Assembly (NCBI RefSeq): GCF_001465295.1
Contig: NZ_CP011034.1
Span: 1,320,001-1,352,000 of the forward strand
DNA from: Pseudoalteromonas translucida KMM 520
GTDB lineage: Bacteria; Pseudomonadota; Gammaproteobacteria; Enterobacterales; Alteromonadaceae
Direction: 5' to 3'
Length of the DNA stretch: 32,000 nucleotides
In this document: positions 1 to 27,462 of the stretch, in pieces
How positions within the stretch are numbered: the stretch's first letter is position 1
Layout of the letters: each line of letters begins with the position of its first letter
Position numbers and translations under genes: made by a program
The notes under the pieces: model-generated
Told to the model about the DNA's origin: nothing
Databases searched by the model: none
Seen by the model: only the letters and a program-made list of their open reading frames with translations

Positions 1-1
1 G

Positions 2-223
2 AGAACTCGAGCTAAGACAATACTGGTTACGTGGTTAAAAACTATTAACACGGATTATTTTACTATTGGCGACCCTGGTACATTTAACCCATATCAAGCT
101 AATACGTTTCAAAACGTGCCTGTTGGACAGCAGTATAATTACCACGTCTACCATGTTGATGGTGCCGCATCTGAAGAGTTAGCAGACCAATTAGAACAGT
201 ACATTAATTGGGATTGGCCATAA
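2..223 (+). CDS. 3' end of an unidentified CDS (partial, enters from the left edge)
   Basis: Frame 2 is open from the window edge to TAA at 221-223. My translation ends ...DPGTFNPYQANTFQNVPVGQQYNYHVYHVDGAASEELADQLEQYINWDWP*. It is absent from the ORF track because no start codon lies in the window. No family recognised. Confidence 0.4.
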   Translation, partial: RTRAKTILVTWLKTINTDYFTIGDPGTFNPYQANTFQNVPVGQQYNYHVYHVDGAASEELADQLEQYINWDWP

Positions 224-310
224 GCTAGATAGTGTTTTCAGATACAGATTCAATAATTAGCAGTAAAGGTAGCTTCGTGTTTGATTAACATTTAACGAGT
301 GCATTACACC

Positions 311-459
311 AGATTGCAAAGATTGCAGGTATAGCGATAACTGCGCACTATAAAAACAAATAACTCATTGAAAATATTTAAAAATAACCACTGCGCACAT
401 ATAAGTTGCGCAATTACTGCGACATAATGCGCATGAGTGCACCTGCTGCGCACTAAAGC
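311..459. promoter_or_regulatory. Cluster of TGCGCA-core boxes (candidate operator/promoter array) upstream of the accessory cassette
   Basis: CTGCGCAC occurs at 341-348, 391-398 and 446-453 (spacing 50 and 55 bp). Each copy is followed directly by a TA-rich hexamer: TATAAA 349-354, TATAAG 400-405, TAAAGC 454-459. Palindromes TTGCGCAA (406-413), ATGCGCAT (427-434) and GTGCAC (437-442) lie between them. There is a degenerate ACTGCGAC at 416-423 and a tandem AGATTGCA at 311-318 and 320-327. Confidence 0.5.
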
Positions 460-545
460 ATGAAGTGAAAATGACGCTAAGGCAGCGTGTGTTACCCATA
501 AATTAACAGCTATGGACGAAACTGCTAAAAAGGAGAAGGCGAATA

Positions 546-1277
546 ATGGAGAAATTTGGAAGGTGCTTTAAATGGATAACTTTCACTTACGTGATATTAG
601 TTCTGGTCATAATTTTTGCTTACGGTTTTTTTGTTAAAGGAGGTAGCTGGGGCAGTTTAAGTGATGTTGTTATTGCTGTATTTACAGTACTCATTGCTTA
701 TACAACAAACATGCTATTAATTGCTGCTTGGCTTACTAGTAGCTCTTGGTTAGACCAGAGCAAACATAGCTCAGCTCAAGAGCTTCTTTTGTCACTTTCT
801 GAATACTACTTTACTATTCATGAAATTAAGACGATGTATATTGAGAAGAGATTTCTTGAAAGCTTTACCAAAATAACTCCGAATAATTATCATAAGCTCT
901 CCAGCCAAGCGTTAAAGTATTTCGAAGGGACACCTAAAAACGCCACACCAGCTCAACTTGCGCCTTTTTTGGATTTCATATTGCCCACATTTAAAGAGGA
1001 AGCTGAAAAACTAAAGCCTCAAATTTACGCAATTAAGGAAAAATTAAATCAGCTCAAATTTGAAGTTATGACAAAGGCAAGCCCATTCGCAATAGAGATC
1101 GAGCATTTAGATTTTGATTTAATAACAGAGATTAATTTCATGCTAACGATAGATGAAAACATGCACAAAAACGCCAGCCAATTATTTGATAAACTTAGTG
1201 CCGCCACTGGTTATGATGGCTTTAAGTTAATGTATATCGCAGACCCAGTAAAAGACGGGCTATTCAAGGATGCTTGA
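546..1277 (+). CDS. Two-TM membrane protein with a cytoplasmic helical C-terminal domain, unknown family (cassette gene A)
   Basis: AGGAG at 531-535 precedes ATG 546. Two hydrophobic helices are present (WITFTYVILVLVIIFAYGFFV and VVIAVFTVLIAYTTNMLLIAAWL), followed by about 180 aa of polar sequence. The stop overlaps the next start (ATGCTTGA). The gene is AT-rich. Confidence 0.75.
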   Translation: MEKFGRCFKWITFTYVILVLVIIFAYGFFVKGGSWGSLSDVVIAVFTVLIAYTTNMLLIAAWLTSSSWLDQSKHSSAQELLLSLSEYYFTIHEIKTMYIEKRFLESFTKITPNNYHKLSSQALKYFEGTPKNATPAQLAPFLDFILPTFKEEAEKLKPQIYAIKEKLNQLKFEVMTKASPFAIEIEHLDFDLITEINFMLTIDENMHKNASQLFDKLSAATGYDGFKLMYIADPVKDGLFKDA

Positions 1278-1644
1278 TAGTAATTTTAACAAAGCTGATT
1301 TATATCTTGATTTACCTCATGGCGTATCAGGCTTAATTGAGAAAAACAAAAACGCCACTTTCTACGGCATCGCCAGTGGTCGCTCAATGGAAGGTGTTGG
1401 CATATTCGATGGTGATTTACTTATGATTGATAGAAGCTTAAGTGTAGAGCCTGGTGATGTGATCGTTGCTGTACTTAACGGCCAGTATGTTTGCAAAATA
1501 GCAGACCTTAAAAATAACCTGCTTTTATCTGCAAGTGATGAGTACGGCCCTTATAAACTCAAGGAGGGTGACGAGTTTACATTAGAGGGTGTAGTTAGCA
1601 GCTCAGTTCGCATGCATCGTGGAAATATAAAGGATACTATTTAG
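1270..1644 (+). CDS. S24 peptidase, UmuD'-like, with no cleavable N-terminal arm and no HTH domain (cassette gene B)
   Basis: The SGRSM serine motif (S39) and YVCK lysine (K76) are spaced 37 residues apart, as in UmuD S60/K97 and LexA S119/K156. GDLLMIDRS...GDVIVAVLNGQYVCK...LEGVVSSSVRMHR aligns by eye with UmuD DGDLLIVDS...GDIVIAAVDGEFTVKK...VFGVVIHVVKAMR. An in-frame TAA at 1249-1251 rules out a longer N-terminus. Confidence 0.85.
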   Translation: MLDSNFNKADLYLDLPHGVSGLIEKNKNATFYGIASGRSMEGVGIFDGDLLMIDRSLSVEPGDVIVAVLNGQYVCKIADLKNNLLLSASDEYGPYKLKEGDEFTLEGVVSSSVRMHRGNIKDTI

Positions 1645-1645
1645 C

Positions 1646-2521
1646 ATGTGTAATACAGAAAAAAAACCAAAGCACAAGCAAGTTTTTGCTATTGATGAGA
1701 GTGAAGGATTGCACAAGAACTATTCTTTTAGGCTGGCTATATTTCTACCTATTGTGTTTTCGGCCGCAATAATTATTATATTCTCTTTACAGCTATGGAG
1801 CGATGGCGGATTTAGATTGGGATTTTCACAATCAGAAGTGTCAGCATTTATTAAATATTTTTCATTTCCAATATCTTTATTGCCACTTAGCATTGTTTTT
1901 GGCGTTATGGTTGCGAGGTTCCATTCGTCAAAGCAAAAGGCAAAAAGCAACTTGATTACTGAGGTTAACAATTCAGTAAATTTTTTTTACAAAACACATG
2001 AAGAATTTGATAAATATTGTCAGAAATTATTGGCTGTTGAGCATTCTGTATTTAATAATATTGATTCAGTTATATGTTATGGGTTCCTATTTAAAAACAG
2101 CACGACTAAAAACCCATCTTTAATCATCAATGATGAAACAATTCAGCAAATTGAAAAGTTTTACTTTTTATACTTTAACTGCTTTATGGATTATATTTCT
2201 AGCGAGGAATATAGAAATAGAAATGTGAGACTAGAATATGGAGAGGCACATGGATTTGCAGATTATTATGTAAAAAATTTCCAGCTACAACTTGGTATAG
2301 ATATCAATAGAATATTTTTAATTCACTACATAAAAGACTTTGATAAAAACATTAAATCTATAAATAAAGCATTCTTAAAGTTAATTGCCTTCCCAGGGGT
2401 TGATAATTTTATTGAGTCCCATAAGAGGTTATCTTCTATAGAAGATAACATTTTACGCTTGCTAGACGAGAGTGTTGCCTATCAAGTCGAAGTTAAGAGC
2501 TTGCAAACCCCCCAATCCTGA
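1646..2521 (+). CDS. Two-TM membrane protein with a cytoplasmic C-terminal domain, unknown family (cassette gene C)
   Basis: ATG lies 1 nt after the TAG of gene B. TM helices are FRLAIFLPIVFSAAIIIIFSLQLW and FIKYFSFPISLLPLSIVFGVMVARF. The post-TM segment loosely resembles that of gene A. The gene is very AT-rich. Confidence 0.75.
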   Translation: MCNTEKKPKHKQVFAIDESEGLHKNYSFRLAIFLPIVFSAAIIIIFSLQLWSDGGFRLGFSQSEVSAFIKYFSFPISLLPLSIVFGVMVARFHSSKQKAKSNLITEVNNSVNFFYKTHEEFDKYCQKLLAVEHSVFNNIDSVICYGFLFKNSTTKNPSLIINDETIQQIEKFYFLYFNCFMDYISSEEYRNRNVRLEYGEAHGFADYYVKNFQLQLGIDINRIFLIHYIKDFDKNIKSINKAFLKLIAFPGVDNFIESHKRLSSIEDNILRLLDESVAYQVEVKSLQTPQS

Positions 2522-2543
2522 TATAGTATTTCCCATGTTGAAG

Positions 2544-2581
2544 AAATCCGCTTAGTTTATGACTGAGCGGATTTTTGTTTT
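2544..2581 (+). terminator. Intrinsic terminator closing the A-B-C operon
   Basis: AAATCCGCT (2544-2552) pairs with AGCGGATTT (2566-2574). The stem extends inward by TAGT/ACTG with one G-T pair, leaving a 5-nt loop. TTTTTGTTTT follows. It starts 23 nt after the gene C stop. Confidence 0.75.
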
Positions 2582-2594
2582 AAAAGGACGTAAA

Positions 2595-3380
2595 ATGAAC
2601 AACCAAAATGATAGCAGTACATTAGACTTATTTCGAGAGCGATTAGCTAGCCCGTTTCTATTCACTTTTTTTTGGGTATCGTGTACTTGGAACTGGAAAT
2701 TGATTTATTGGTTTTTATATGAACCACTAAAGCCAAGCATAAAACTTGTACGCTTACCTTTTGAGTGGGAAGTGCTGACTCCTGTTTTAATTACAGTTGC
2801 GGTTATAAGTGTTGTTCCGTGGCTCAATAATGCGGTAGAGATAATAAAACAATTTGCAGAACATCAGTTAAACCTTTGGCTTAATAAGCTGAACTGGAAA
2901 AAAATGGTTACTGAAGCTCAATACCAAAAGTTGGTCGATGAGGTTGCACAGTTAAAGGAGAAGCAGCACCAGCTCGTCAACGATAACATTAAAGCTCAAG
3001 AAAGTGAGATTCAAGCGAAGAAGGAGTTACTTTCTTCGCAAGCGGAAGTTAATTTAAATTTAAAAAAGCTATCTGACCTAGAAAGAGAAAAAACAGCTCT
3101 TTCCACTAAATTATTTGAGGTGGAGAAATGTAGGGCGGTGTTAGGCGATGAATTAGGCCCATTGAAAAAGAAGGTGGAAGAAATAGAAAAAGTGATTAGA
3201 GATAGCATGGGGGAGCTATCTGAGCTGGAGTTTGACTCAAGTGACAGATCATACGCCTGGCTTAATCAACTTACTAAAAGATATAAATATATTATTAGTA
3301 TAATAGATGAAAAAGAAGCTAAATGGCGCTTCAATCAGGCTATATATGAATTAGAGAAAAAGAAAATCAATAATAAATAA
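2595..3380 (+). CDS. Two-TM membrane protein with a long C-terminal coiled coil, unknown family (cassette gene D)
   Basis: AAGGA at 2584-2588 lies 6 nt before ATG 2595. The track start at 2559 sits in the terminator loop. TM helices are FLFTFFWVSCTWNWKLIYWFLY and VLTPVLITVAVISVVPWL. About 110 aa of heptad-like E/K/L/Q-rich sequence follows. Confidence 0.7.
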   Translation: MNNQNDSSTLDLFRERLASPFLFTFFWVSCTWNWKLIYWFLYEPLKPSIKLVRLPFEWEVLTPVLITVAVISVVPWLNNAVEIIKQFAEHQLNLWLNKLNWKKMVTEAQYQKLVDEVAQLKEKQHQLVNDNIKAQESEIQAKKELLSSQAEVNLNLKKLSDLEREKTALSTKLFEVEKCRAVLGDELGPLKKKVEEIEKVIRDSMGELSELEFDSSDRSYAWLNQLTKRYKYIISIIDEKEAKWRFNQAIYELEKKKINNK

Positions 3381-3450
3381 ACTATCTACTTTATTTTATA
3401 GCGCTTATTGCTAATATTTCAACAAGTTAGGTGTTTTACGCCTAGCTAGA

Positions 3451-3476
3451 AAAGCCCGCTTAACTGCGGGCTTTTT
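3451..3476 (+). terminator. Intrinsic terminator after gene D
   Basis: AAAGCCCGC (3451-3459), loop TTAACT, GCGGGCTTT (3466-3474), T-run to 3476. Confidence 0.75.
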
Positions 3477-3524
3477 CGTATGCGCACAATGGTAAGGTTT
3501 TATTAGCCATTTTATTCCTTAGTT

Positions 3525-3554
3525 AAGCCCAGCCCTCACCGGTTGGGCTTTTTT
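3525..3554 (+). terminator. Second tandem intrinsic terminator just upstream of the lysis genes
   Basis: AAGCCCAGCC (3525-3534) pairs with GGTTGGGCTT (3541-3550), with one G-T pair and loop CTCACC. T-run 3549-3554. Confidence 0.7.
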
Positions 3555-3584
3555 ATGCGCGAAACAAATTTATAGGTGGGCGTT

Positions 3585-3935
3585 ATGACAAGCGATAAAG
3601 AAATGTGTAAAGACTTTGAAGATAGCGGGGCGGTGTTTCCAAAAGTTACGCCTGAGCGTATTGAAGAGCTAATGCAGCAGGTTCGATACATTCCGTCATT
3701 AGTAGAGGGGACTACAACAACGCTTGTTGTTAGCGTTCTACCAATTGGGCTAACAGAGTTTACTTTAGCCACCACCACAATGGCATGTGTAGATAAGCGC
3801 AATTTTAATGCTGAAAAGGGCGTTAAGTATTGTATTGAGAAATGCGAAAAAGAAACGCGCAATAAACTGTGGGAGCTTGAGGGTTACGCTTTATCGCAAT
3901 TCATTCAGGCCGGTCATTATGATTATAAAAGCTAA
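3585..3935 (+). CDS. Phage N4 gp49 / Sf6 gp66 family protein
   Basis: AGGTGG at 3574-3579 precedes ATG 3585; the track start at GTG 3576 has no RBS. The pattern VTPERIEEL...TTTTLVVSVLPIGLTEF...ACVDKRNFNAEKGVKYC...KLWELEGYAL matches my recollection of the Pfam Phage_gp49_66 family. Confidence 0.7.
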   Translation: MTSDKEMCKDFEDSGAVFPKVTPERIEELMQQVRYIPSLVEGTTTTLVVSVLPIGLTEFTLATTTMACVDKRNFNAEKGVKYCIEKCEKETRNKLWELEGYALSQFIQAGHYDYKS

Positions 3936-4413
3936 AAGCCTAATCGCGCTTGGACTGACAGGTGTTCTTGCTGCGGTTGGTGTAACGGTTGCTAACTTTG
4001 AAGGTAAAGAGCTGGTTGGTTATGTTGACCCTGTTGGCATTGAAACAGCTTGCTTTGGGCATACTGCTACAGCTATCGCAGGTAAGGAATATACAGAGCA
4101 TGAATGCTTAAATCTGTTTGCGCAGGACTTAGCTGAACATGACGAGCAGTTAAACCATGCTGTATTGGTCCCGCTCACTCGCGGTGAGCACATGGCTTAT
4201 TTATCATTTCATTACAATGTAGGTGCCGGGAACTTTAGGCGCAGCACATTATTAAAATATCTAAACGAAAATCAACGCTTACGAGCGTGTGATGAATTAA
4301 CTCGCTGGGTTTATGCCAATGGGCGCAAGCTTACGGGGCTTGTTAAGCGCAGAGAGCAAGAACGCACAATGTGTCTAGAAGGAGTTAGTAGTAATGTTGA
4401 AATTTCTAGGTAG
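3919..4413 (+). CDS. SAR-type endolysin, GH24 (T4/P21 lysozyme-like)
   Basis: FEGKELVGYVDPVGIETACFGHT carries the canonical E-x8-D-x5-T catalytic triad. The N-terminus MIIKAKSLIALGLTGVLAAVGVTVA is a Gly/Ala-rich weakly hydrophobic helix typical of signal-arrest-release domains. ATG 3919 overlaps the stop of the upstream gene. The track start at 3808 would overlap that gene by 128 nt. Confidence 0.85.
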   Translation: MIIKAKSLIALGLTGVLAAVGVTVANFEGKELVGYVDPVGIETACFGHTATAIAGKEYTEHECLNLFAQDLAEHDEQLNHAVLVPLTRGEHMAYLSFHYNVGAGNFRRSTLLKYLNENQRLRACDELTRWVYANGRKLTGLVKRREQERTMCLEGVSSNVEISR

Positions 4414-5012: not shown

Positions 5013-5295
5013 GCAAACAACAGTGTATAGCTACACTGCAAGCATCGGCACTGCTGCTGGCGGTCTTATGTCATTGAATACTTTAGCCCTGTTGTTAGGA
5101 ATAGTCTTTACAGCCGCAACGTTTTTCATTAACTGGCGCAGTCAAAAGCACCGCCTTGAGATTGAGCTGCAAAAACGCAAAGAAGATGCTGAATTTCATC
5201 GTGCGCGCATGGCAAAACTGTCGGGCGATGATGTAAACCATTACAACAAGCGGGTAATGAAGGATGATCGCCGGTGTCAAAATGGGCCGATTTAA
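5005..5295 (+). CDS. Holin, two TMDs (possibly a pinholin)
   Basis: ATG 5005 overlaps the o-spanin stop (ATGGATAA). TMD1 ASIGTAAGGLMSL is Gly/Ala-rich and TMD2 is LALLLGIVFTAATFFINW. The C-terminal tail is highly charged. The track start at 4966 is less likely. Confidence 0.65.
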   Translation: MDKQTTVYSYTASIGTAAGGLMSLNTLALLLGIVFTAATFFINWRSQKHRLEIELQKRKEDAEFHRARMAKLSGDDVNHYNKRVMKDDRRCQNGPI

Positions 5296-5981
5296 ACGAG
5301 CTGTTTTTAAAGGAGCATGCTGAAAAGGGTATCGGGCCTCTTGAGTTTTGCGAAAGCAATGGCCTGAATTACGCCACCGCCAGGCGATATATAAAACTAC
5401 CGCAAGCGAATTTAAAGAATGCCCCTAAACAGCGCAAGACTAAAGACGGTAAAAAAAGACCTGGCGTTAAGCCTGGTACCAGAAACCGAAGCATAGTTAA
5501 GCATGGTGGTTACTCAAAGTATTTTGAAAACAATATTAATCAACTTGTCGAAGGTACAACACTTGAAGATGAGCTAGACCTTTGCCGCGCTCGCATTCAC
5601 ATGGTTATGGATGCTATTGAGGGTATTCAAAAGCTTTTAGATAACCCTGAAACAGACAATGATGCAAAAACACGACTTTATGAGTCGCTATTTAAAGCTG
5701 AAATGTCGCTTGATAGAAACGTTTGCAGAGCTGAGTCGATAACTAAAACATTATCGAGCATTAAAACAGACTCGCTTGCACGCGGTAAATTGATTGCTGA
5801 AACATCACGAATTACACAGCAGACCAAAGCACTGGTTCATTCTACTAAGCGCGGCAAGCACCAGGCAGAAATTTCAGAGCATGAAGCGATTAAAGCACGC
5901 AAAGAAGCAGGCGGTACCAGTAAGCTTGATGATTATATTGATAAACGTACTGGCGGTTTAGATACCGTGGTTAGTCAATAA
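5274..5981 (+). CDS. Terminase small subunit
   Basis: GTG start with GAAGGA upstream. The N-terminus is HTH-like (LEFCESNGLNYATARRYIK), followed by a basic linker and a helical oligomerisation-like region. It lies immediately upstream of, and overlaps, the large terminase. Confidence 0.75.
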   Translation: MSKWADLNELFLKEHAEKGIGPLEFCESNGLNYATARRYIKLPQANLKNAPKQRKTKDGKKRPGVKPGTRNRSIVKHGGYSKYFENNINQLVEGTTLEDELDLCRARIHMVMDAIEGIQKLLDNPETDNDAKTRLYESLFKAEMSLDRNVCRAESITKTLSSIKTDSLARGKLIAETSRITQQTKALVHSTKRGKHQAEISEHEAIKARKEAGGTSKLDDYIDKRTGGLDTVVSQ

Positions 5982-7714
5982 TGCAGCCTAAAACAGCTAA
6001 ATACCCCAAAAGCACGTGGCTTACGCAAGAAGAGCGCTTTAATTTAGATGAAGCTGAGTTGTTTGAACGCTGCGACCCATACCTAGATTGTTGGTGGTGG
6101 CGCATAAACAACTTATACATCATTGCTAACGAAAAGGGCCAAGAGGTTTTGTTTCGTTGCCGTATAGCGCAAACCGTATTGTTTATGACGATGTGGTTTT
6201 TAAACATTATCTTAAAAGCGCGGCAATTGGGCTTCAGTACAGCAATACAGGTTTTTATCCTGGACCATGCCATGTTTAACGATAACAGGCAGTGCGGGGT
6301 AATTGCTCAGGGTAAAGACGAAGCGGGCGCTATATTCTCGTCAAAGATACTTTACCCCTACGAACGGCTACCGAATTTCTTAAAGACGGGCAAGCGCTCA
6401 GTTAAAAGCAAGACGGGTACCGGGATTAAATTTAACAATGATTCGTGGATAAGGGTTGCAGTATCGTTTCGTTCGGGAACGCTGCAGGTTTTACACGTAT
6501 CAGAATACGGCAAGATATGCGCTAACTACCCATTGCGGGCAGATGAAGTGCAATCGGGCTCGTTTAACGCCGTACATGAGGACTCTTACATATTTGTAGA
6601 GTCAACAGCCGAAGGCGCAACCGGCAATTTCTTTGATATGTCAGTCGATGCGATGGAGCTATTAGCGTCCGGGATTGATTTATCACAGCAAGATTTTAAG
6701 TTTCACTTTTACCCTTGGTTTGATGATCCTAAGTATGTAGCCCCGGTACCACCAGGCGGCCTAAAACTTTCAAAGGAAAAAGTTAAATACTTTGCGTCAG
6801 TTGAAGCGGCAAACGGCGCAACGCTAACAGACGAGCAAATTAGCTGGTACATAGGCAAAGAGCGTAACCAAAAAGGCAAGATGAAGCAGGAATATCCATC
6901 TACACCGATGGAGGCTTTTTTAACGTCGGGCCGTAAAGTATTTGATAGCGATGATTTAATGCGTGCCGAAGGGCGATGCGTTAAGCCATTAATTGTTTAT
7001 GACATTGAGCCATACACCGGCAAGCTTAAAAAAATGAACGGTAAAGTTGATTTAAGCGTAAGAGGCGGCGACAAACTTGCTCAGTCAACGCTTGGGTACC
7101 TACTTATTTGGGAATTACCCGACGATAACGAAGATTATGCGATCGGCGGCGATGTTGCAGAAGGACTTGAACATGGCGATCGCAGCTCATTAGACGTTGT
7201 TGCCAGTTCAGACGGGCGACAGGTAGCGCATTGGTTTGGTCATATAGACCCTAAGCGGTTTGCACATATAAATAAGCATATCGGATTAATGTATAACAAG
7301 GCTTATATCGGCATTGAGCGAAACAATCACGGTCATGCAACACTTCAAGAGCTTGTTGATATTTACCCAACGAGCCGGATTTACACGGAAGAGCACATTG
7401 ATCGTGAAGATACGGACGAAGAAACCCGCAAAGTAGGCTGGAATACAACTGCGCAATCAAAGCCAATTTTAACGAGTGGCCTTGATGAGCTGCTTACTCA
7501 CGACAAAGACGGCATTGTTTGGCGCGGCACAGTTAATGAACTCAATACATTTGTTTACGATAAAAAAGGCCGCATGGGCGCACAGCCTGGCGGGTTTGAT
7601 GATCAGGTGATGAGCTATGCAATTGCGCAAGAAATGCGAGTAAGAATGCCTAAGCGGCTAATTAAAGACAATACACCAGCACCCCATAACCCTAACTCTT
7701 GGATGGCACGATAA
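5981..7714 (+). CDS. Terminase large subunit
   Basis: 577 aa. It has the ILKARQLGFST motif typical of the Terminase_6-type ATPase N-domain, and a C-terminal nuclease-like FDDQVMSYAIA. Its position is between TerS and the portal. Confidence 0.9.
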   Translation: MQPKTAKYPKSTWLTQEERFNLDEAELFERCDPYLDCWWWRINNLYIIANEKGQEVLFRCRIAQTVLFMTMWFLNIILKARQLGFSTAIQVFILDHAMFNDNRQCGVIAQGKDEAGAIFSSKILYPYERLPNFLKTGKRSVKSKTGTGIKFNNDSWIRVAVSFRSGTLQVLHVSEYGKICANYPLRADEVQSGSFNAVHEDSYIFVESTAEGATGNFFDMSVDAMELLASGIDLSQQDFKFHFYPWFDDPKYVAPVPPGGLKLSKEKVKYFASVEAANGATLTDEQISWYIGKERNQKGKMKQEYPSTPMEAFLTSGRKVFDSDDLMRAEGRCVKPLIVYDIEPYTGKLKKMNGKVDLSVRGGDKLAQSTLGYLLIWELPDDNEDYAIGGDVAEGLEHGDRSSLDVVASSDGRQVAHWFGHIDPKRFAHINKHIGLMYNKAYIGIERNNHGHATLQELVDIYPTSRIYTEEHIDREDTDEETRKVGWNTTAQSKPILTSGLDELLTHDKDGIVWRGTVNELNTFVYDKKGRMGAQPGGFDDQVMSYAIAQEMRVRMPKRLIKDNTPAPHNPNSWMAR

Positions 7715-20313: not shown

Positions 20314-23300
20314 ATGGCTAAGTTAACAAAAGGTGGCTTTTCGGGTATTGCTCGAAAGGCAAAGCAAAGCCAATCAGAAGGCGCGATCACAGAGAACATT
20401 GAAATATTAACCGGGCAACGTGGTAGTGGTGAAAACCGCGCGCTATTAGTTAAGGACCTGGTTAACTTAGATGATATGAAACGCAATGCGCTAATCAATA
20501 GCGCAAAGGGTGGCAACAATAGCGGTGGCTTACCCATTGTTGTAGGTGGTATTCAGCGCCCGCACGCACCAGTAAACCTTAGCGCTACCGGCGGCTTTAC
20601 GTTTATAGCACTAACCTGGGACCGCCCAACTTATCGAGGTCACGCTTACGCTGAAATTTGGCGCAGCGAAACAGACGCGTACAACACAGCTACGCTTATA
20701 GCTACCGAAGTGGCGGACGTATTTAGCGACTCAGTAAACATGGGTGCTGAATTTTACTATTGGGTTCGCTTTGTAAACGTTGCTGATATGAAAGGCCCTA
20801 CGCAGGGCGCAAAAGGTATCTATGCTAAAACTGTTGAGTCTGCGGCGTCTATACTTGATGAAATAGGCGGGAAAATTGAAGGCTCGCACCTGGGGGATTT
20901 CCTAACGTCTGAAATAGGGAAGATACCGGAAATAGATTTTACTTTAAACGAAGTGATCACGGTTGAGATACCGAAATTAAAAGTAGACGTTGATAGCTTT
21001 GGAGCCGACGCCGACCAACTGCGCATTGACGCTGACTCATTACGCGTTGATGTTGATAGTAACCTTGCAGCAATACCCCCGCTTAAGCTTGATGTTGATA
21101 AAATAAAGCTGACTGAAATACCAAAATTAAAGACTGACATTGATCAGCTAAATGTAGATGTTCCTGCATTAAGGGCGGACGTTGATAAAAACCTGGTAGA
21201 TATTCCAGCGTTAAGAATAGACGTTGATAAAAACCTGCTAGAAATACCGGACATTAAAAGCGATGTTAGTGCGATAAATGTTGAGATACCAGCTATTCGC
21301 CAGGACTTAATAGACTTAACTGGCGAATCAGCAGAAATCAAAGCTATTGCAGATACAGCAAAACAAAGAGTTGAATCGGTAGAAGCAAGCAGCGAAACTT
21401 TAGCTAGGCAGCTAATTGAAAGCGCGTCGGTAAATGATACCAATTGGCAAAGCAATACGACAAAGCTAATAGCGTTTGAATCGTCTTTAGAAAATGTGAA
21501 TGCCCGTATTGAGTCTGATTTTTTAACTAAAACAGAAGCAAACGAAGCGATAGCCGCCGCGTCACAAACCATACGCACTGAAATAGAAGAGTCGGGCTTA
21601 GCGCTATCTGGTGATATAGAGAGTACCTATTACACTAAAACAACTACAGATCAGGCAATTGCTCAAGCGACCCAGGATATAAAGGCGCAAATTGAAGATC
21701 CATTGGGTAGCAGTGTTGGCGCTCAACTTAAATCGCAGCATTACACTAAAGTCGATGCGGACAGCGCGATTAGCTTTTCAGCAGAGCAGCTAAAATCAGC
21801 AATAGAGAACCCGGCGGGTACCAGCCTGGGCGCATTAATAAACAACGACTATTACACAAGCATTGCTACAGATAGCGCCATTGCGGCTTATGGCTTGCAA
21901 CTAAAAAGCGATATTGAAAACCCGGAAGGCGATAGTATAGGGGCCTCACTTAAAACCGATTACTACACTAAAACCGATACGGATAGCGCAATAAGCCAGG
22001 CGACTACGCTATTAAGCTCAGAAATTACCGGCGCAACCGATCAGATAGATACAATAAATGCCACACTTACAAGCGATTATTATACAAGTGCGGAAGCGGA
22101 TCAGGCGGTATCAGCAGCGACGCAGCTTTTAAAATCTGAAATAGAAAACCCGTTAGGCTCAAGTGTTGGCGCAACTTTATTTAATAACTACTCGACTACC
22201 ACAACTACAAATGAGGCTATAAGCCAGGCGACGACTGAGCTTAAATCAACCTTGGATGGTGACATTGGCGCGATAAGTGCGGACCTGGGCAGCAATTACT
22301 ACACCATAGCCAGCACAGACAGCGCAATAAGCCAGGCGACACAGTTATTAAAATCAGCAATTGAGGACCCGCTAGGCACTAGCATTGGTGCGACTTTGGC
22401 TACTGAATATTCTACTACGGTAGATATAGACCAAGCTATTAGTGAAGCAACTACGCAGCTGAACTCGAACATTGATAGTGCCGAAGCAGATATTTACCAA
22501 AACGTATATACGAAAGTTGAGGCAGATACCGCCATATCAGGAAGTGTAACTGCGCTCAGATCTGAATTAAGCAAGGTTATCGAGGATGGCGACACCGCTT
22601 TATTCCAGGACTTTAGTGCGGACCTGCAAACTAACTACTACACAAAAACACAAGCGGACGGCGCGATAAGCTCGGCTACAACGGCTTTAAAATCAGCGCT
22701 TGATAGTGATATAGGTAATGTAACTACTGAGCTACAAGATAACTACCTTACAAAAGTAGGCACCAACTCAGCCATTAGCCAGGCTACGCAGCTTTTAAAA
22801 TCTGAGATTGAAGATCCAGAGGGCAACAGCCTGGGCGCTACGCTTTTTACCGACTACTCAACTAAGACAGAAGTTAACCTGGCAATTAGTGAAGCGACCA
22901 CACAGCTAAACACTAACCTAGATAACCTGCAGTCTGATGTATATAACAACTTTTACACCAAAACGGATGCGGATAGCAGCATAGCCGGTAGCGTTACCGC
23001 GCTTAGATCTGAGCTTATGCAGGTTATTGATGATGGCAATAGCGACGCCGTTCAATCCATCGAAGCCGACCTGCAAACTAACTACTACACCAATGTAGCA
23101 ACAGATAGCGCTATCAGTGAGGCGACAACCTTACTAAAGACAACTATTGAAGATCCGCAAGGGGATAGCCTGGGTGCTGAACTGTTTAATCGGTACTACA
23201 CCAAAACAGACACCGACGGCGCATTGGCTGAACTTAATACGCAGCTAAGGGCAGAGTACCAACCACTAAGCGAAGCGGTTATTGAAAACGCCCTTGCCAA

Positions 23301-26300
23301 TGATGAGGCAAACAACAAGCAGCTAAAATTTGCAGCAGAGATAATATCGCAACAGAAAACCTTTGTTGATGATCAGGGCGCGCTTGCTGAGTCTATTTTT
23401 GCGCTACGTTCTGAATTTGGCGACAGCCAGGCAGAGCTATATACCTTGAAAGAAACGTATGCTGGCAACGTGCTAGCAACTGCGAAGGAGTTTAACAAAC
23501 TAGAGTCAAGCATAGGCGACGTATCAGCAACGCTATTAAATAGCTATGACACATCGGCCACGACAACAGAAGCGATAGCTAATGCGGTTTTGGCCCTTAA
23601 ATCTGAAATAGAAGATCCTGCAGGGGATAGTGTAGCCGCCAACCTACAGGTGAACTACTACACCAAAACTGATACTGATAACGCACTAAGCGAGCTAACC
23701 ACGCAGTTAAACGCAAGCGTCACCGGTTTATCAGCTGAAATTTATGAAAACATTTATACTAAGGTCGATGCGGACAGCGCTATAAGCTCGGCTGTTACTG
23801 CGCTTCGCTCAGACGTTGATAGTGATATAGGCGAACTTAGTGCAGGAATAGAGCAAAACTACTACACCAAAACGGATGCGGACAGCGCAATAGCACAGGC
23901 TAACCAACTGCTAAAATCGGCTATTGAAGATCCGGAAGGTAGTAGCCTGGGCGCAACCTTGTTTAATGCTTACTACACAAGCACTCAAGCAGATAGCGCG
24001 ATAAGTGAGGCCACAACGGCCCTTAAATCTGTTTTAGATAGTGACATAGGTAGCGTTACTGCGGACTTGCAAAACAATCACTCTACTACAGCGCAAACAA
24101 ATCTCGCCATTTCAGAAGCGACCCAGCAGTTAAAAAGTGCTATTGAAGATCCCGCCGGCGACAGTTTAGCGGCGGATATTTACACTAACTTTTCAACCAA
24201 GGCTGATACAACTAGCGCCATTAGTGAAGCGACAACAGCGCTAAAATCTACACTCGATGGCGATATAGGTGCGGTTTCGTCCGACTTGCAGACTAACTAT
24301 TTAACTAGCACGCAAACAGATGAAGCCATTAGCCAAGCGAATACCTTATTAAAATCGACAATAGACGATGATATAAGCTCAGTAGCCGCAGACCTACAAA
24401 CTAACTACCTAACAAGCACGCAATCTAACCAGGCGATAAGCGAAGCTACTACAGCGCTTAAATCTGTTTTAGACGGCGATATAGGAAGTGTTGCGGCGGA
24501 CTTGCAGAACAACCACTCTACGACAGCAGAAACAAATTTAGCTATATCCCAGGCAACCCAGCAACTTAAAAGCGCAATCGAAGATCCTGCCGGAGATAGC
24601 TTAGCGGCAGATATTTACACCAATTTCTCAACCAAGACAGATACAACCAGCGCAATAAGCCAAGCAACTACGGCACTAAAATCTACACTTGATGGCGAAA
24701 TTGGCACAGTAGCATCGGATTTGCAGACTAACTACTACACGAAAACTAACACTGACAGCGCCATTAGCCAGGCGACTACGGCGTTAAAATCTACGCTGGA
24801 CGGCGATATAGGTGCGGTAGCCTCAGACTTACAGACTAATTATTTAACCAGCACGCAAACGGATCAGGCAATAAGCCAGGCAACCACAACATTAAAATCC
24901 ACACTGGATGGTGATATTGGCGAGGTGGCCGCAGATCTGCAAAACAACTATCGCACAGAGACAGATACCGATACGGCAATCAGCCAGGCAACAACTGTTT
25001 TAAAAAGTGAGATTGAAGATCCGGAAGGCAACAGCCTGGGCGCTACGTTATTTAATGACTTTCAAACTAAGGTGGATGCGGACAAATCAACGGCAACGAC
25101 TAACCAGCAACTTAGGGCAGAGTTTGAGCCAAGCGCACAAGCGGTAATTGAAAACGCATTAGCGAATGACCTGGGGCAAGGCAGAAGAGCGCTAGCCGAG
25201 GCTGATATAATCAACAAGCAAACTGTTTTTGCTAATGAGCAAGAAGCACTAGCCGAATCCATTACCCTGCTAAATACGTCGATTGACGAAAGTAACTCAA
25301 ACCTTTACCAGCTACAAAAGACTTTTGCCAGCAAGACGCAGGCAACCGCACAGGATTTATTAAAGCTCGATAGCAGTGTTGGCGATGTTAAGGCTGATTT
25401 AGTAAATAACTACTTCACTAGCGCAGACGTTAACGAGGCAATAGCCAGTGCAGATATGGCTTTGCGTGCTGCCATAAAAGGCGGCGACGATGAAGCTTTA
25501 GAGACTGTAACGGCAGAGCTACAAACCAATTATTATACAAAGGCATCGGCAGATAGCGCCATTGCAGAAGCGACGACGCAACTTAAAAGCGCCATTGAGG
25601 ACCCTAACGGATCAAGTGTTGGTGCTGATTTATACGTTAACTATTCAACAACTACTGAAACAGGCTTAGCTATAAGCTCAGCTGTTACCGGGCTAAAGTC
25701 TACAATTGATACTGATATTGGCAACTTAAGCGCTGGATTGTCGCAGAATTACTACACAAAAACCGATACAGATAGTGCAATAAGCCAGGCTACTACAGCT
25801 TTAAAGTCAACACTTGATGGCGATATTGGCGACTTGAATGCGGTTTTGCAGACGGACTATTACACTAAGGTAGCCACGGATAGCGCGATTAGCTCAGCAG
25901 TAACCACCTTAAAGTCTACGCTGGATAGTGATATAGGAAGTTTGGGCGCAGTATTGCAGGCAAACTACTACACTAAAACAGCGGCGGATAGTGCGCTTAG
26001 CTCAGCAGTAACTAATCTAGGCTCTAAAATTGACACTGATATAGGCGTTGTTAATTCAGGGCTGCAAACAAATTACTACACTAAAACAGCAACAGATAGC
26101 GCCATTAGCTCAGCAGTAACTACGCTTGAATCAAGTGTGGGTGATGATATTGGCGACTTAAGCGCGGTACTACAGGCCAACTACTACACGAAAACAAACA
26201 CTGACGGCGCAATTAGTAGCGCCAGCCAGGTGCTAAAAGCCGCTATTGAGGACAAAAACGGTAACAGTGTGGGTGCCAGCCTGCAAACACTTGGCGAAAC

Positions 26301-27462
26301 CGTGGCAACAAATGACGGTAAATTCTCTTCTTTGTGGGGCGTAAAGACCAGCGTTAACGGCTTGCAGTCGAGTATTGGCCTAGTGAACGACGGCGTAGAG
26401 CCTATCTTTGCAGTTAAGGGCGCTAAGTTTGCGATTATAACGGATCAAGATCCTACTAACTTAACACCGGTATTTGCAGTTTCAAGCGGTAAAACGGTAA
26501 TTAACACGGCGATAATTGACCAGGCATTTATAAAAAGCCTGGTTACAGATGATTTATTATCTAATCGTATACTGGTTGGCTCCCGCTTTACGTCGCCGTC
26601 TATCAACTACAATCCCGCCAATGGCGCAAGGAGCAATAACTTTTCAATTGACCCTGGCGGCAACATGCTTGCTAAGAGCGCGACGCTTGAGTCGGTAACT
26701 ATTAAAGACAGTTACGGCAATGTTGTTATGTCGTCTACCGGTGCCATACCTTCATCAAAAGTAACTGGCCTGGGGGCTTTAGCCGCTAAAAGCTCACTGT
26801 CTTATAATGAGGTAACAGGCACGCCCGCGCTTGGCTCATTGGCTTACTTAAACTCGCTCGCTTACAACAGCATAACCGGCAAGCCGTCACTAGGTCCTTT
26901 TGCTGGACTTAGTAAAATATTGAGTTCAAACGTTACAACCTATATAGCCAACGGCGCTATTGGTAGTGCGCAAATAGATACGGCGTATATCAACTCGTTG
27001 TTTGGTCAAAACGCGAGCTTTTATGGCACCGTGTATGCGAACAATATTGAGGGCGATGTAACTGATATAAAGTCAAAATCAACATCGTTTGTAACAACCT
27101 CATCTTCGGCGGAGCTAACAGTGGTAACATTTACAGTGTCGGCACTTCCTTTTACAAGAAACGTGATGATTTGCGGGGTGGAAACGACAGGCTCAGGAGC
27201 TAGCGGATCGGCTCCCAACGTTGAAGTGCTTCTATATGTTTCCGGCTACTCAGGGGCGCGAGACAAATATCTTTGTTCTCATTCAAGTACAGGATCTAGC
27301 GTGGCAATATCAATGCCACTAGTTGCAACCATACCCGCCAATAGCACCAGGACAGTAACAGTTAAGATTAGGAAGGTGGGCGGCAGCAGTTCAAGCACTG
27401 CGACTGCGCGAGCGCAGAATGTGGTGTGCCAAGTATTCAAGTCGGGTTCTACAATTTCATAA
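20314..27462 (+). CDS. Giant host-specificity/tail fibre protein (2382 aa): FN3 domain, tandem-repeat shaft, lambda-J-like C-terminal region
   Basis: FN3-like APVNLSATGGFTFIALTWDRP...AEIWRS...EFYYWVRFVNV. There are about 39 repeats of ~36 aa. The C-terminus (LWGVKTSVNGLQSSIGLVNDG...FAII...TPVFAV..GKTVINTAIIDQAFIKSL...GTVYANNIEGDV) parallels lambda J (WGMKLEQT...IAFID...[21 protein letters not shown]...GTLRAEKIVGDI), as recalled from memory. Confidence 0.85.
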   Translation: MAKLTKGGFSGIARKAKQSQSEGAITENIEILTGQRGSGENRALLVKDLVNLDDMKRNALINSAKGGNNSGGLPIVVGGIQRPHAPVNLSATGGFTFIALTWDRPTYRGHAYAEIWRSETDAYNTATLIATEVADVFSDSVNMGAEFYYWVRFVNVADMKGPTQGAKGIYAKTVESAASILDEIGGKIEGSHLGDFLTSEIGKIPEIDFTLNEVITVEIPKLKVDVDSFGADADQLRIDADSLRVDVDSNLAAIPPLKLDVDKIKLTEIPKLKTDIDQLNVDVPALRADVDKNLVDIPALRIDVDKNLLEIPDIKSDVSAINVEIPAIRQDLIDLTGESAEIKAIADTAKQRVESVEASSETLARQLIESASVNDTNWQSNTTKLIAFESSLENVNARIESDFLTKTEANEAIAAASQTIRTEIEESGLALSGDIESTYYTKTTTDQAIAQATQDIKAQIEDPLGSSVGAQLKSQHYTKVDADSAISFSAEQLKSAIENPAGTSLGALINNDYYTSIATDSAIAAYGLQLKSDIENPEGDSIGASLKTDYYTKTDTDSAISQATTLLSSEITGATDQIDTINATLTSDYYTSAEADQAVSAATQLLKSEIENPLGSSVGATLFNNYSTTTTTNEAISQATTELKSTLDGDIGAISADLGSNYYTIASTDSAISQATQLLKSAIEDPLGTSIGATLATEYSTTVDIDQAISEATTQLNSNIDSAEADIYQNVYTKVEADTAISGSVTALRSELSKVIEDGDTALFQDFSADLQTNYYTKTQADGAISSATTALKSALDSDIGNVTTELQDNYLTKVGTNSAISQATQLLKSEIEDPEGNSLGATLFTDYSTKTEVNLAISEATTQLNTNLDNLQSDVYNNFYTKTDADSSIAGSVTALRSELMQVIDDGNSDAVQSIEADLQTNYYTNVATDSAISEATTLLKTTIEDPQGDSLGAELFNRYYTKTDTDGALAELNTQLRAEYQPLSEAVIENALANDEANNKQLKFAAEIISQQKTFVDDQGALAESIFALRSEFGDSQAELYTLKETYAGNVLATAKEFNKLESSIGDVSATLLNSYDTSATTTEAIANAVLALKSEIEDPAGDSVAANLQVNYYTKTDTDNALSELTTQLNASVTGLSAEIYENIYTKVDADSAISSAVTALRSDVDSDIGELSAGIEQNYYTKTDADSAIAQANQLLKSAIEDPEGSSLGATLFNAYYTSTQADSAISEATTALKSVLDSDIGSVTADLQNNHSTTAQTNLAISEATQQLKSAIEDPAGDSLAADIYTNFSTKADTTSAISEATTALKSTLDGDIGAVSSDLQTNYLTSTQTDEAISQANTLLKSTIDDDISSVAADLQTNYLTSTQSNQAISEATTALKSVLDGDIGSVAADLQNNHSTTAETNLAISQATQQLKSAIEDPAGDSLAADIYTNFSTKTDTTSAISQATTALKSTLDGEIGTVASDLQTNYYTKTNTDSAISQATTALKSTLDGDIGAVASDLQTNYLTSTQTDQAISQATTTLKSTLDGDIGEVAADLQNNYRTETDTDTAISQATTVLKSEIEDPEGNSLGATLFNDFQTKVDADKSTATTNQQLRAEFEPSAQAVIENALANDLGQGRRALAEADIINKQTVFANEQEALAESITLLNTSIDESNSNLYQLQKTFASKTQATAQDLLKLDSSVGDVKADLVNNYFTSADVNEAIASADMALRAAIKGGDDEALETVTAELQTNYYTKASADSAIAEATTQLKSAIEDPNGSSVGADLYVNYSTTTETGLAISSAVTGLKSTIDTDIGNLSAGLSQNYYTKTDTDSAISQATTALKSTLDGDIGDLNAVLQTDYYTKVATDSAISSAVTTLKSTLDSDIGSLGAVLQANYYTKTAADSALSSAVTNLGSKIDTDIGVVNSGLQTNYYTKTATDSAISSAVTTLESSVGDDIGDLSAVLQANYYTKTNTDGAISSASQVLKAAIEDKNGNSVGASLQTLGETVATNDGKFSSLWGVKTSVNGLQSSIGLVNDGVEPIFAVKGAKFAIITDQDPTNLTPVFAVSSGKTVINTAIIDQAFIKSLVTDDLLSNRILVGSRFTSPSINYNPANGARSNNFSIDPGGNMLAKSATLESVTIKDSYGNVVMSSTGAIPSSKVTGLGALAAKSSLSYNEVTGTPALGSLAYLNSLAYNSITGKPSLGPFAGLSKILSSNVTTYIANGAIGSAQIDTAYINSLFGQNASFYGTVYANNIEGDVTDIKSKSTSFVTTSSSAELTVVTFTVSALPFTRNVMICGVETTGSGASGSAPNVEVLLYVSGYSGARDKYLCSHSSTGSSVAISMPLVATIPANSTRTVTVKIRKVGGSSSSTATARAQNVVCQVFKSGSTIS
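20920..21315 (+). repeat. Short-period coding repeats (I/V)P-x-(L/I)-(K/R)-x-D-(V/I)-D
   Basis: Eight copies seen in the translation: IPEIDF, IPKLKVDVD, IPPLKLDVD, IPKLKTDID, VPALRADVD, IPALRIDVD, IPDIKSDVS, IPAIRQDLI. Related QLRIDAD and SLRVDVD segments also occur. Confidence 0.7.
21517..26290 (+). repeat. Coding tandem-repeat array, about 39 units of 32-44 aa (mode 36-37)
   Basis: Manual segmentation of the translation. The unit consensus is YYTKTDTDSAISQATTALKS followed by either IEDPxGxSxGAxLxxN or LDGDIGxxxxDLQTN. Two ~100-aa non-repeat modules break the array into three blocks. Confidence 0.85.

Follow-up and report, generated by a model that had tools for sequence, protein, structure and literature searches.

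To our knowledge, experiments have located packaging sites in no more than a handful of model phages, and their prediction from sequence is difficult. The pac and cos sites normally lie in or next to the gene of the small terminase subunit (terS), a proximity that is usual but no strict requirement. The pac site of phage P1 consists of seven TGATCA/G hexamers of a single box type, arranged as two groups that flank an IHF site and the cut, and the pac site of SPP1/SF6 comprises direct repeats (boxA/B/C) around the start of the TerS gene. Repeat arrays that are read by the small terminase subunit (TerS) are thus already known from lambda cosB, SPP1 pac and P1 pac. The cosB repeats of lambda-like phages (R3-I1-R2-R1, with R sites of about 16 bp next to cosN) are read by the winged HTH of the small subunit gpNu1. 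In lambda cosB, which has the layout R3-I1-R2, the TerS recognition helix and the R sites are matched in the lambda, 21 and N15 specificities (PMC4669245). In TerS rings, adjacent helix-turn-helix (HTH) motifs are about one DNA turn apart, and the DNA has been proposed to wrap around the HTH ring; the DNA-binding domain of SF6 TerS binds pac DNA with little sequence specificity (PMC4737164). The pac site of P22 is a single 22-bp sequence (PMC9611059). Here we report an array of five TGCGCA boxes in a 32,000-nt stretch of the genome of Pseudoalteromonas translucida KMM 520 (the window), which is probably a TerS recognition array, i.e. a packaging-initiation site of the pac or cosB kind, as judged from sequence comparison with related phages.

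The array is located in an intergenic region (positions 223-545) between the end of a truncated ORF (position 222; phrog_10564, a family of unknown function) and a four-gene accessory cassette (546-3380). The TGCGCA hexamers start at positions 342, 392, 407, 428 and 447. Three of the boxes are identical octamers CTGCGCAC (box 1, 341..348, with its TGCGCA core at 342-347; box 2, 391..398; box 5, 446..453), which are spaced 50 and 55 bp apart and represent all exact copies of this octamer in the window. The two others are 8-bp palindromes (box 3, TTGCGCAA, 406..413; box 4, ATGCGCAT, 427..434). An AT-rich spacer of 42 bp (349..390) separates box 1 from boxes 2-5 and contains, on the minus strand, a match to the IHF consensus with one mismatch (TTTCAATGAGTTA, 361-373). 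The positions of the five hexamers within about 110 bp, the identity and spacing of the octamers, and the palindromes had all been given correctly in the original prediction, as had a tandem AGATTGCA to the left of the array, which is present in two copies (311-318 and 320-327). No counterpart of this pair was seen in the arrays of relatives; its membership in the array is doubtful. Folding z-scores of +0.68 and 0.00 for the two strands of region 223-545 and an Rfam scan of window positions 1-600 without a match at E ≤ 1 rule out a structured RNA element.

The original prediction had proposed a count of TGCGCA as a check. The whole window contains 18 copies versus 18.2 expected, so that there is no overall enrichment, but five of these 18 copies fall within 111 bp, a density that a single one of 2000 dinucleotide-preserving shuffles attained. 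No hexamer of the window other than TGCGCA has five or more non-overlapping copies per 111 bp, and no hexamer of any kind reached this value in 200 shuffles. It is the clustering of TGCGCA, rather than its overall abundance, that is exceptional.

The window represents a siphovirus-like late region, in which the array is followed by the cassette, two intrinsic terminators in front of the lysis genes (3454-3476 and 3525-3556), a gene of the gp49/66 family, and the genes for an endolysin, a spanin, TerS, the large terminase subunit (TerL), a P22-type portal protein, and head and tail proteins. The cassette encodes a TM protein, an S24/UmuD-like peptidase, a second TM protein, and a coiled-coil protein, and could be a moron or a defence module. 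The peptidase is without a DNA-binding domain; its gene is conserved (67-82%) in relatives of both box types (see below), and the partner cassette genes vary. An exact-protein look-up with the first cassette gene yielded no record, and a megablast search of window positions 1-3600 against INPHARED gave no match. Farther downstream, a 2382-aa ORF (20314-27462) consists of many degenerate repeats of ~40 aa (...YYTKTDTDSAISQATTxLKS...) and presumably encodes a tail fibre or central fibre protein.

The terS gene (5274..5981, plus strand) encodes a protein of 235 aa, and its stop overlaps the start of terL (5981..7714, plus strand). The product of terL belongs to PHROG terminase families, shares 55-56% identity with the annotated TerL of Aeromonas phage phiARM81mr and of Stx phages, and is presumed to be the nuclease/motor that is recruited by TerS. 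The assignment of TerS draws on its gene position and on matches to PHROG and NCBIfam profiles (phrog_370, E = 7.6e-39; phrog_51, E = 1.2e-11; a weak match to TerS_not_xtmA, E = 6e-6, under the cut-off), which together point to a small terminase subunit; homologues are annotated as such in Aeromonas, Stx, Pasteurella and Klebsiella phages. A Pfam search with TerS gave no match, a search against PDB sequences found no solved TerS at a significant level, its only match being a non-significant one to the HTH of an IS21-family transposase, and a Foldseek search of the TerS model against the PDB returned only generic helical hairpins (all E > 0.1) and no solved TerS by fold. In the AlphaFold model (overall pLDDT 79), a three-helix domain (residues 1-42) is followed by a disordered basic linker (residues 43-78) and a long helical hairpin, which as modelled is the general layout of small terminases. 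The helices of the N-terminal domain (residues 4-18, 22-28 and 33-36) have pLDDT values of 82-91. This three-helix HTH domain (5274..5399, plus strand) is the proposed reader of the boxes, and the putative recognition helix within it (sequence ...NYATARRYIK) is YATARRYIK at residues 33-41 (nt 5370-5396, plus strand).

Relatives with 75-95% identity in TerL are common in IMG/VR and are also present in genomes of Pseudoalteromonas, Psychromonas, Colwellia and Shewanella. In all of them, a 186-aa zinc-ribbon protein at the Q position comes after a nin-like module of the lambdoid kind (NinB, YbcO, RusA). The Q-position protein, which is encoded after RusA (L002, 2965-3525; L026, 5325-5933; Q-centred loci L104-L126), ranges from 186 to 202 aa and carries two CxxC pairs; it has no match in Pfam or NCBIfam and weak matches to PHROGs of unknown function, and may represent an uncharacterised antiterminator family. 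An array, defined as at least three TGCGCA or at least three CGGAAC per 150 bp no more than 3 kb downstream of the Q-position gene, was found in 24 of the 25 Q-centred IMG/VR loci. These arrays are situated ahead of the late operon, ~0.3-1.5 kb past the Q-position gene, which is where the window has its boxes. The boxes of the marine relatives are TGCGCA (3-7 copies), CGGAACA (4-8 copies; type B) or CGGTCTA-like (L022 and L130), and flanks, spacings and neighbouring genes differ among the loci. In the compact arrays of relatives, the boxes are mostly spaced by 7-16 bp, with some only 7 bp apart, as in TGCGCAcTGCGCA; the spacing in the window (50, 15, 21 and 19 bp) is wider. A perfect IHF consensus (WATCAANNNNTTR) is present in the equivalent spacer of L002, L006 and L121 and in the type B and type C arrays, and is absent from the array of the window. 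Arrays of several repeats are thus present in the window (five boxes) and in the relatives (three to eight), with the perfect IHF consensus in bipartite arrays of relatives and the one-mismatch site in the window.

One relative (L001) has no cassette, and its array lies directly before the same two terminators and the gp49 and lysis genes. The array is therefore a conserved feature of the phage backbone, and the cassette is an insertion beside it, which speaks against the proposed connection between the boxes and cassette expression. Two further elements that had been counted as parts of the feature do not belong to it: the TGCGCA at position 3481 is a lone copy without a counterpart in L001, and the ATGCGCG at 3555-3561 follows the second terminator also in type B relatives, whose box differs, and hence belongs to the conserved junction between the terminator and gp49. 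The array of the window ends 4.8 kb upstream of terS, and those of the clade relatives are located 1.6-4.4 kb upstream; only in distant relatives is an array found within or immediately beside terS.

Several other features of these loci were noted. A Pseudoalteromonas sp. APC 3691 prophage with a TGCGCA-type TerS (L129) has only two boxes (3867-3881), followed by unrelated DNA; truncation or interruption of its array is possible, as is a packaging defect of the prophage. Three contigs (L007, L008 and L014) end 56-73 bp left of the first box, which is at most a weak hint of physical DNA ends, since the positions differ slightly and the mosaic junction is prone to assembly breaks. L018 and L128 also have a loose group of TGCGCA motifs, ~2 kb upstream of their arrays, which was judged incidental, as it lies in NinB/YbcO-like coding sequence with spacings that are mostly >100 bp. 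On the minus strand, a short hydrophobic ORF that is conserved among loci starts directly left of the CGGAACA arrays (MSIGYLIIISVSILLGFISM...; 6739-6948 in L001, and at the equivalent position in L005, L012, L013 and L030), which might encode a small membrane peptide or a toxin-like gene product.

The type of box changes in step with the DNA-reading helix of TerS across the related phages, and it is this correspondence that leads to the reading of the array as a TerS site. Identity to the window in TerS residues 1-76 was 74-76% for the 7 close TGCGCA-type loci versus 46-52% for the 16 CGGAACA-type loci, i.e. the ranges do not overlap (the loci are phylogenetically related, and counts of concordant loci overstate their independence). 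In the C-terminal 160 residues, identity was 77-82% for the TGCGCA type versus 82-84% for the CGGAACA type. For this part of TerS and for TerL, portal protein, Q-position protein, lysin, spanin, orf4966 and S24 peptidase, the ranges of the box types overlap, so that the N-terminal HTH of TerS is the only gene segment whose similarity separates them. Clustering of the ORFs in 10 kb either side identified no family that separates all TGCGCA-type from CGGAACA-type loci; it yielded two ORFs restricted to subgroups, one of 61 aa in the closest TGCGCA-type loci, which is absent from the window and from more distant TGCGCA-type loci, and one of 76 aa after the Q-position gene in most CGGAACA-type loci, both without a family match. 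The lysis module between the array and terS comes in two allele groups, each of which is found with both box types. The array and terS have thus been parted by recombination, yet the match was kept, and linkage cannot explain it; such a pattern is, as far as sequences can tell, the signature of a swapped DNA-binding domain that is kept in step with its site.

The same correspondence extends to a wider range of phages. TerS proteins with the motif ARRY(I/L)K are accompanied by TGCGCA boxes in the window and in L002, L006, L018-20, L055, L128, L023, L026 and L051, as well as in a Colwellia (L131) and a Shewanella (L132) locus. In more distant phages with an ARRY-type terS, the TGCGCA boxes are located within the gene itself (Aeromonas phage phiARM81mr, seven boxes; Klebsiella phage ST405-OXA48phi1.3, six; E. 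coli phage vB_EcoS-683R6, four; IMG/VR L034, five; a Xenorhabdus prophage, three), 59-146 nt past the start of the HTH motif. TerS proteins with AKRYIK correspond to TGCGAA arrays at the same in-gene position (Pasteurella Pmp11, Klebsiella RothD), those with ARTRIK (Stx phages VT2-Sakai and phi419) to four in-gene GATCAT boxes with a spacing of 12 bp, and those with ARKH, ARKN or ARKK to (C)GGAACA arrays. L022 and L130 share the ARKH core with type B yet have CGGTCTA-like boxes; the helix core alone thus does not fix the box type. For three contigs chosen from the TerS sequence alone, the predicted boxes were found in all cases at the expected positions (L144, ARRH, five TGCGCA; L141, ARKN, and L143, ARKK, five to six GGAACA). 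The in-gene TGCGCA boxes are read as AQ, as LR/VR/MR or as CA, i.e. in two or three reading frames, and the in-gene TGCGAA boxes as CE or AN/AK, which indicates a constraint on the DNA and not on the peptide.

In the Klebsiella phage ST405-OXA48phi1.3 (L138, 5986-6990; MK416008), TerS is a fusion with the ARRYIK HTH module at its front, a linker encoded by the six TGCGCA boxes, and a complete Terminase_2 domain (PF03592) that has an HTH of its own; the phage combines this TerS with a TerL that is different and shorter, and with head genes of the P22 type. The arrangement is evidence, at the level of sequence, that the HTH module and its array may be portable between terminase scaffolds. In the Stx phages VT2-Sakai (L135, 6127-6168) and phi419 (L134), the GATCAT boxes follow the HTH-coding part of terS and encode DHE/DHK/DHE/DHD; each contains a GATC (Dam) site. 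In the AKRY-type terS genes of L137 and L139 (+111 in both), the codons for the helix residues (T/S)-A-K spell the cognate box TGCGAA, which is probably a coincidence. A scan of virus contigs for three CTGCGCAC at the spacing of the window yielded 46 loci, which did not include any of the contigs retrieved here by TerL or Q similarity, and a metagenome scan for four TGCGCA at the exact spacing of the window yielded four unrelated GC-rich contigs and no close relative of the window. These four contigs (L145, 10187-10265; L146, 365-446; L147, 193-290; L148, 1509-1590) carry five to six taTGCGCAat boxes, mostly 14-21 bp apart, which in at least L146 adjoin a divergently transcribed gene whose product resembles a winged-helix protein. 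They represent a different TGCGCA-array system, and the motif is not unique to TerS.

Compared with the described systems, the locus shares several properties with lambda cosB: it has several short repeats, the bipartite arrays of relatives have an IHF consensus between the repeat groups, and helix and repeats change together, here with three to five helix/box types. Unlike in lambda, the TerS of the window has no detectable sequence similarity to gpNu1 (no match in Pfam or among solved structures), the repeats are 6-8 bp versus about 16 bp and present in up to 7-8 copies, no cosN or cosQ was identified, and the array is 2-5 kb from terS, whereas cosB lies directly upstream. As in P1 pac, the hexamers are partly palindromic and form two groups split by an IHF-type site, the arrays of distant relatives are inside the terminase gene, and the Stx box GATCAT contains GATC; the TerS of the window, however, has no homology to PacA, and there are several exchangeable box types. 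The N-terminal HTH domain of TerS and the repeats about one helical turn apart resemble SPP1/SF6 and fit the wrap-around model, and the fusion protein of the Klebsiella relative joins the ARRYIK module to a Terminase_2 domain, whereas the strict covariation of helix and box argues for base-specific reading, unlike in SF6. The location of the array within terS in the Aeromonas, Klebsiella, E. coli, Xenorhabdus, Pasteurella and Stx relatives, 30-180 nt past the helix-coding segment, is reminiscent of P22/Sf6 pac, although the site is a repeat array rather than the single sequence of P22 and, in the clade of the window, lies outside terS altogether.

The spacing of HTH motifs by one turn in TerS rings and the 7-16 bp between the boxes of compact arrays mean that the architecture fits a TerS site. 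Each N-terminal HTH of an oligomeric TerS would read one TGCGCA box with the helix ...NYATARRYIK, and the AT-rich, probably bent spacer that splits the boxes of the window would allow the DNA to be wrapped or looped on the TerS assembly. TerS would then recruit TerL, which would make the first cut nearby and start the filling of the capsid. In the marine Alteromonadales clade, the array lies 2-5 kb upstream of terS, between the Q-position module and the late (lysis, packaging and head) genes, a place to which it would have moved, and in the window the four-gene accessory cassette has been inserted just right of it. We infer the physical binding and the role in packaging from the covariation. 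The distance of 4.8 kb between array and terS is unusual and counts against a pac or cos site, and further points against the TerS reading are the lack of a perfect IHF site in the window, the wide spacing of its boxes, the two boxes of L129, the departure of L022 and L130 from the pairing of ARKH with CGGAACA, the assignment of TerS by profiles and gene position, and the TGCGCA arrays beside a different DNA-binding gene in the unrelated GC-rich contigs.

The boxes had originally been interpreted as operators of a dimeric regulator that overlap promoters, or as a phage-specific promoter element linked to the lysogeny/late-gene switch. What is supported of this interpretation is that they are repeated sites for a sequence-specific DNA-binding protein; their identity as sites of a transcription regulator or as a promoter element is not supported. 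An operator array for a dedicated regulator (a repressor, a Cro-like protein, or a late activator/antiterminator) at the promoter of the cassette or the late genes would be in keeping with an intergenic region directly upstream of the cassette, a palindromic core, TA-rich hexamers adjoining three boxes, and a Q-position gene upstream in all relatives, but we consider it quite unlikely. The -10-like hexamers beside the octamers do exist in the sequence, but a sigma-70 scan detected no -35 partner and they are not conserved beside the boxes of relatives; a consensus scan, which activator-dependent promoters would escape, found no sigma-70-like promoter on the plus strand in 223-545 or in the arrays of L001 and L002. 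The only protein segment that covaries with the boxes is the N-terminal HTH of TerS. The Q-position protein does not partition by box type, being nearly identical in L006 (TGCGCA) and L001 (CGGAACA), which also rules out a Q-binding element of a late promoter, and among the ORFs within the sampled +/-10 kb there is no family, either in up to 10 kb upstream of Q or from Q to TerL, that is common to all TGCGCA loci and absent from CGGAACA loci. The array is kept in cassette-less relatives, boxes only 7 bp apart would presumably crowd classical dimeric binding, and the occurrence of the same boxes inside the terS reading frame of more distant relatives is at odds with a late or lysogeny-switch promoter element. 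It is very unlikely that the boxes serve as iterons of a replication origin or as partition sites, or that a DNA methyltransferase or a restriction system acts on them as clustered targets. Short repeats at roughly helical spacing beside AT-rich DNA do resemble iterons, but relatives have separate iteron-like repeats in their early genes, and the arrays are downstream of the nin/Q module. In L141, an early gene contains seven copies of GACCCA(CG) (2471-2588), and in L144 there are four copies of CAAAAG in a Phage_rep_O gene (4098-4147); these resemble iterons of a replication origin and are separate from the box arrays. TGCGCA is the FspI restriction site, but the boxes that replace it there in other phages (CGGAACA, TGCGAA) are not palindromes, unlike a type II site, and the remainder of the window shows neither avoidance nor enrichment of TGCGCA.

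Alternatively, the N-terminal domain of TerS might bind the boxes mainly for the sake of transcription, e.g. in a feedback on the late operon or the cassette or in the control of read-through at the junction of early and late genes. The covariation supports binding by TerS and is silent on its purpose, and the arrays are located exactly at the early/late boundary, where those of types B and C straddle the intrinsic terminator of the early operon and where, in L026, L051 and L131, only a few bases separate the last box from the ribosome-binding site of the gene that follows. We regard a mainly transcriptional function as unlikely, given that there are no promoter-like sites in or beside the arrays and that the in-gene arrays of Aeromonas, Klebsiella, E. 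coli, Pasteurella and Stx phages occupy the classical place of pac, where the role of a promoter or operator is improbable. We know of no TerS that acts as a transcription factor. A packaging-initiation site read by TerS is the interpretation that we prefer.

In the open-access literature that was searched, we found no description of the N-terminal module of TerS, of the hexamer boxes or of a correspondence between several types of helix and box, no description of an array that in marine phages has been displaced to the start of the late region, and no paper linking TGCGCA to terminase or pac; the open-access papers on Stx phages contained no usable end mapping for the 933W type. The module of TerS HTH and boxes is found on scaffolds of the Stx-phage type, the Terminase_2/P22 type (Klebsiella), and in marine siphoviruses. 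More tentatively, the N-terminal HTH and the hexamer array may constitute a portable packaging-specificity cassette, exchanged among terminase scaffolds without other relationship, with a simple, readable recognition code, a possibility that would include the split between array and terS in the marine phages; at the early/late boundary, binding by TerS might then also link the onset of packaging with late transcription, or with expression and transfer of the neighbouring accessory cassette.

If the array is a TerS site, the supposed regulatory switch before the accessory cassette of the window would be removed, and the cassette would have been inserted beside a packaging site and upstream of the two terminators in front of the lysis genes. 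Packaging-initiation sites could then be found by searching for a hexamer array that matches the N-terminal helix of TerS, a rule that would cover Shiga-toxin phages, Klebsiella and Pasteurella prophages, and abundant marine prophages; for the Shiga-toxin phages of the 933W type, the GATCAT array is the predicted TerS recognition site. The phages would also provide a compact natural set of helices and boxes for dissecting the reading of DNA by an HTH ring, for example the pair in which a change from Arg to Lys in the helix accompanies a change from C to A in the box, and would help to predict chromosomal and plasmid sequences that are prone to mis-packaging and transduction.
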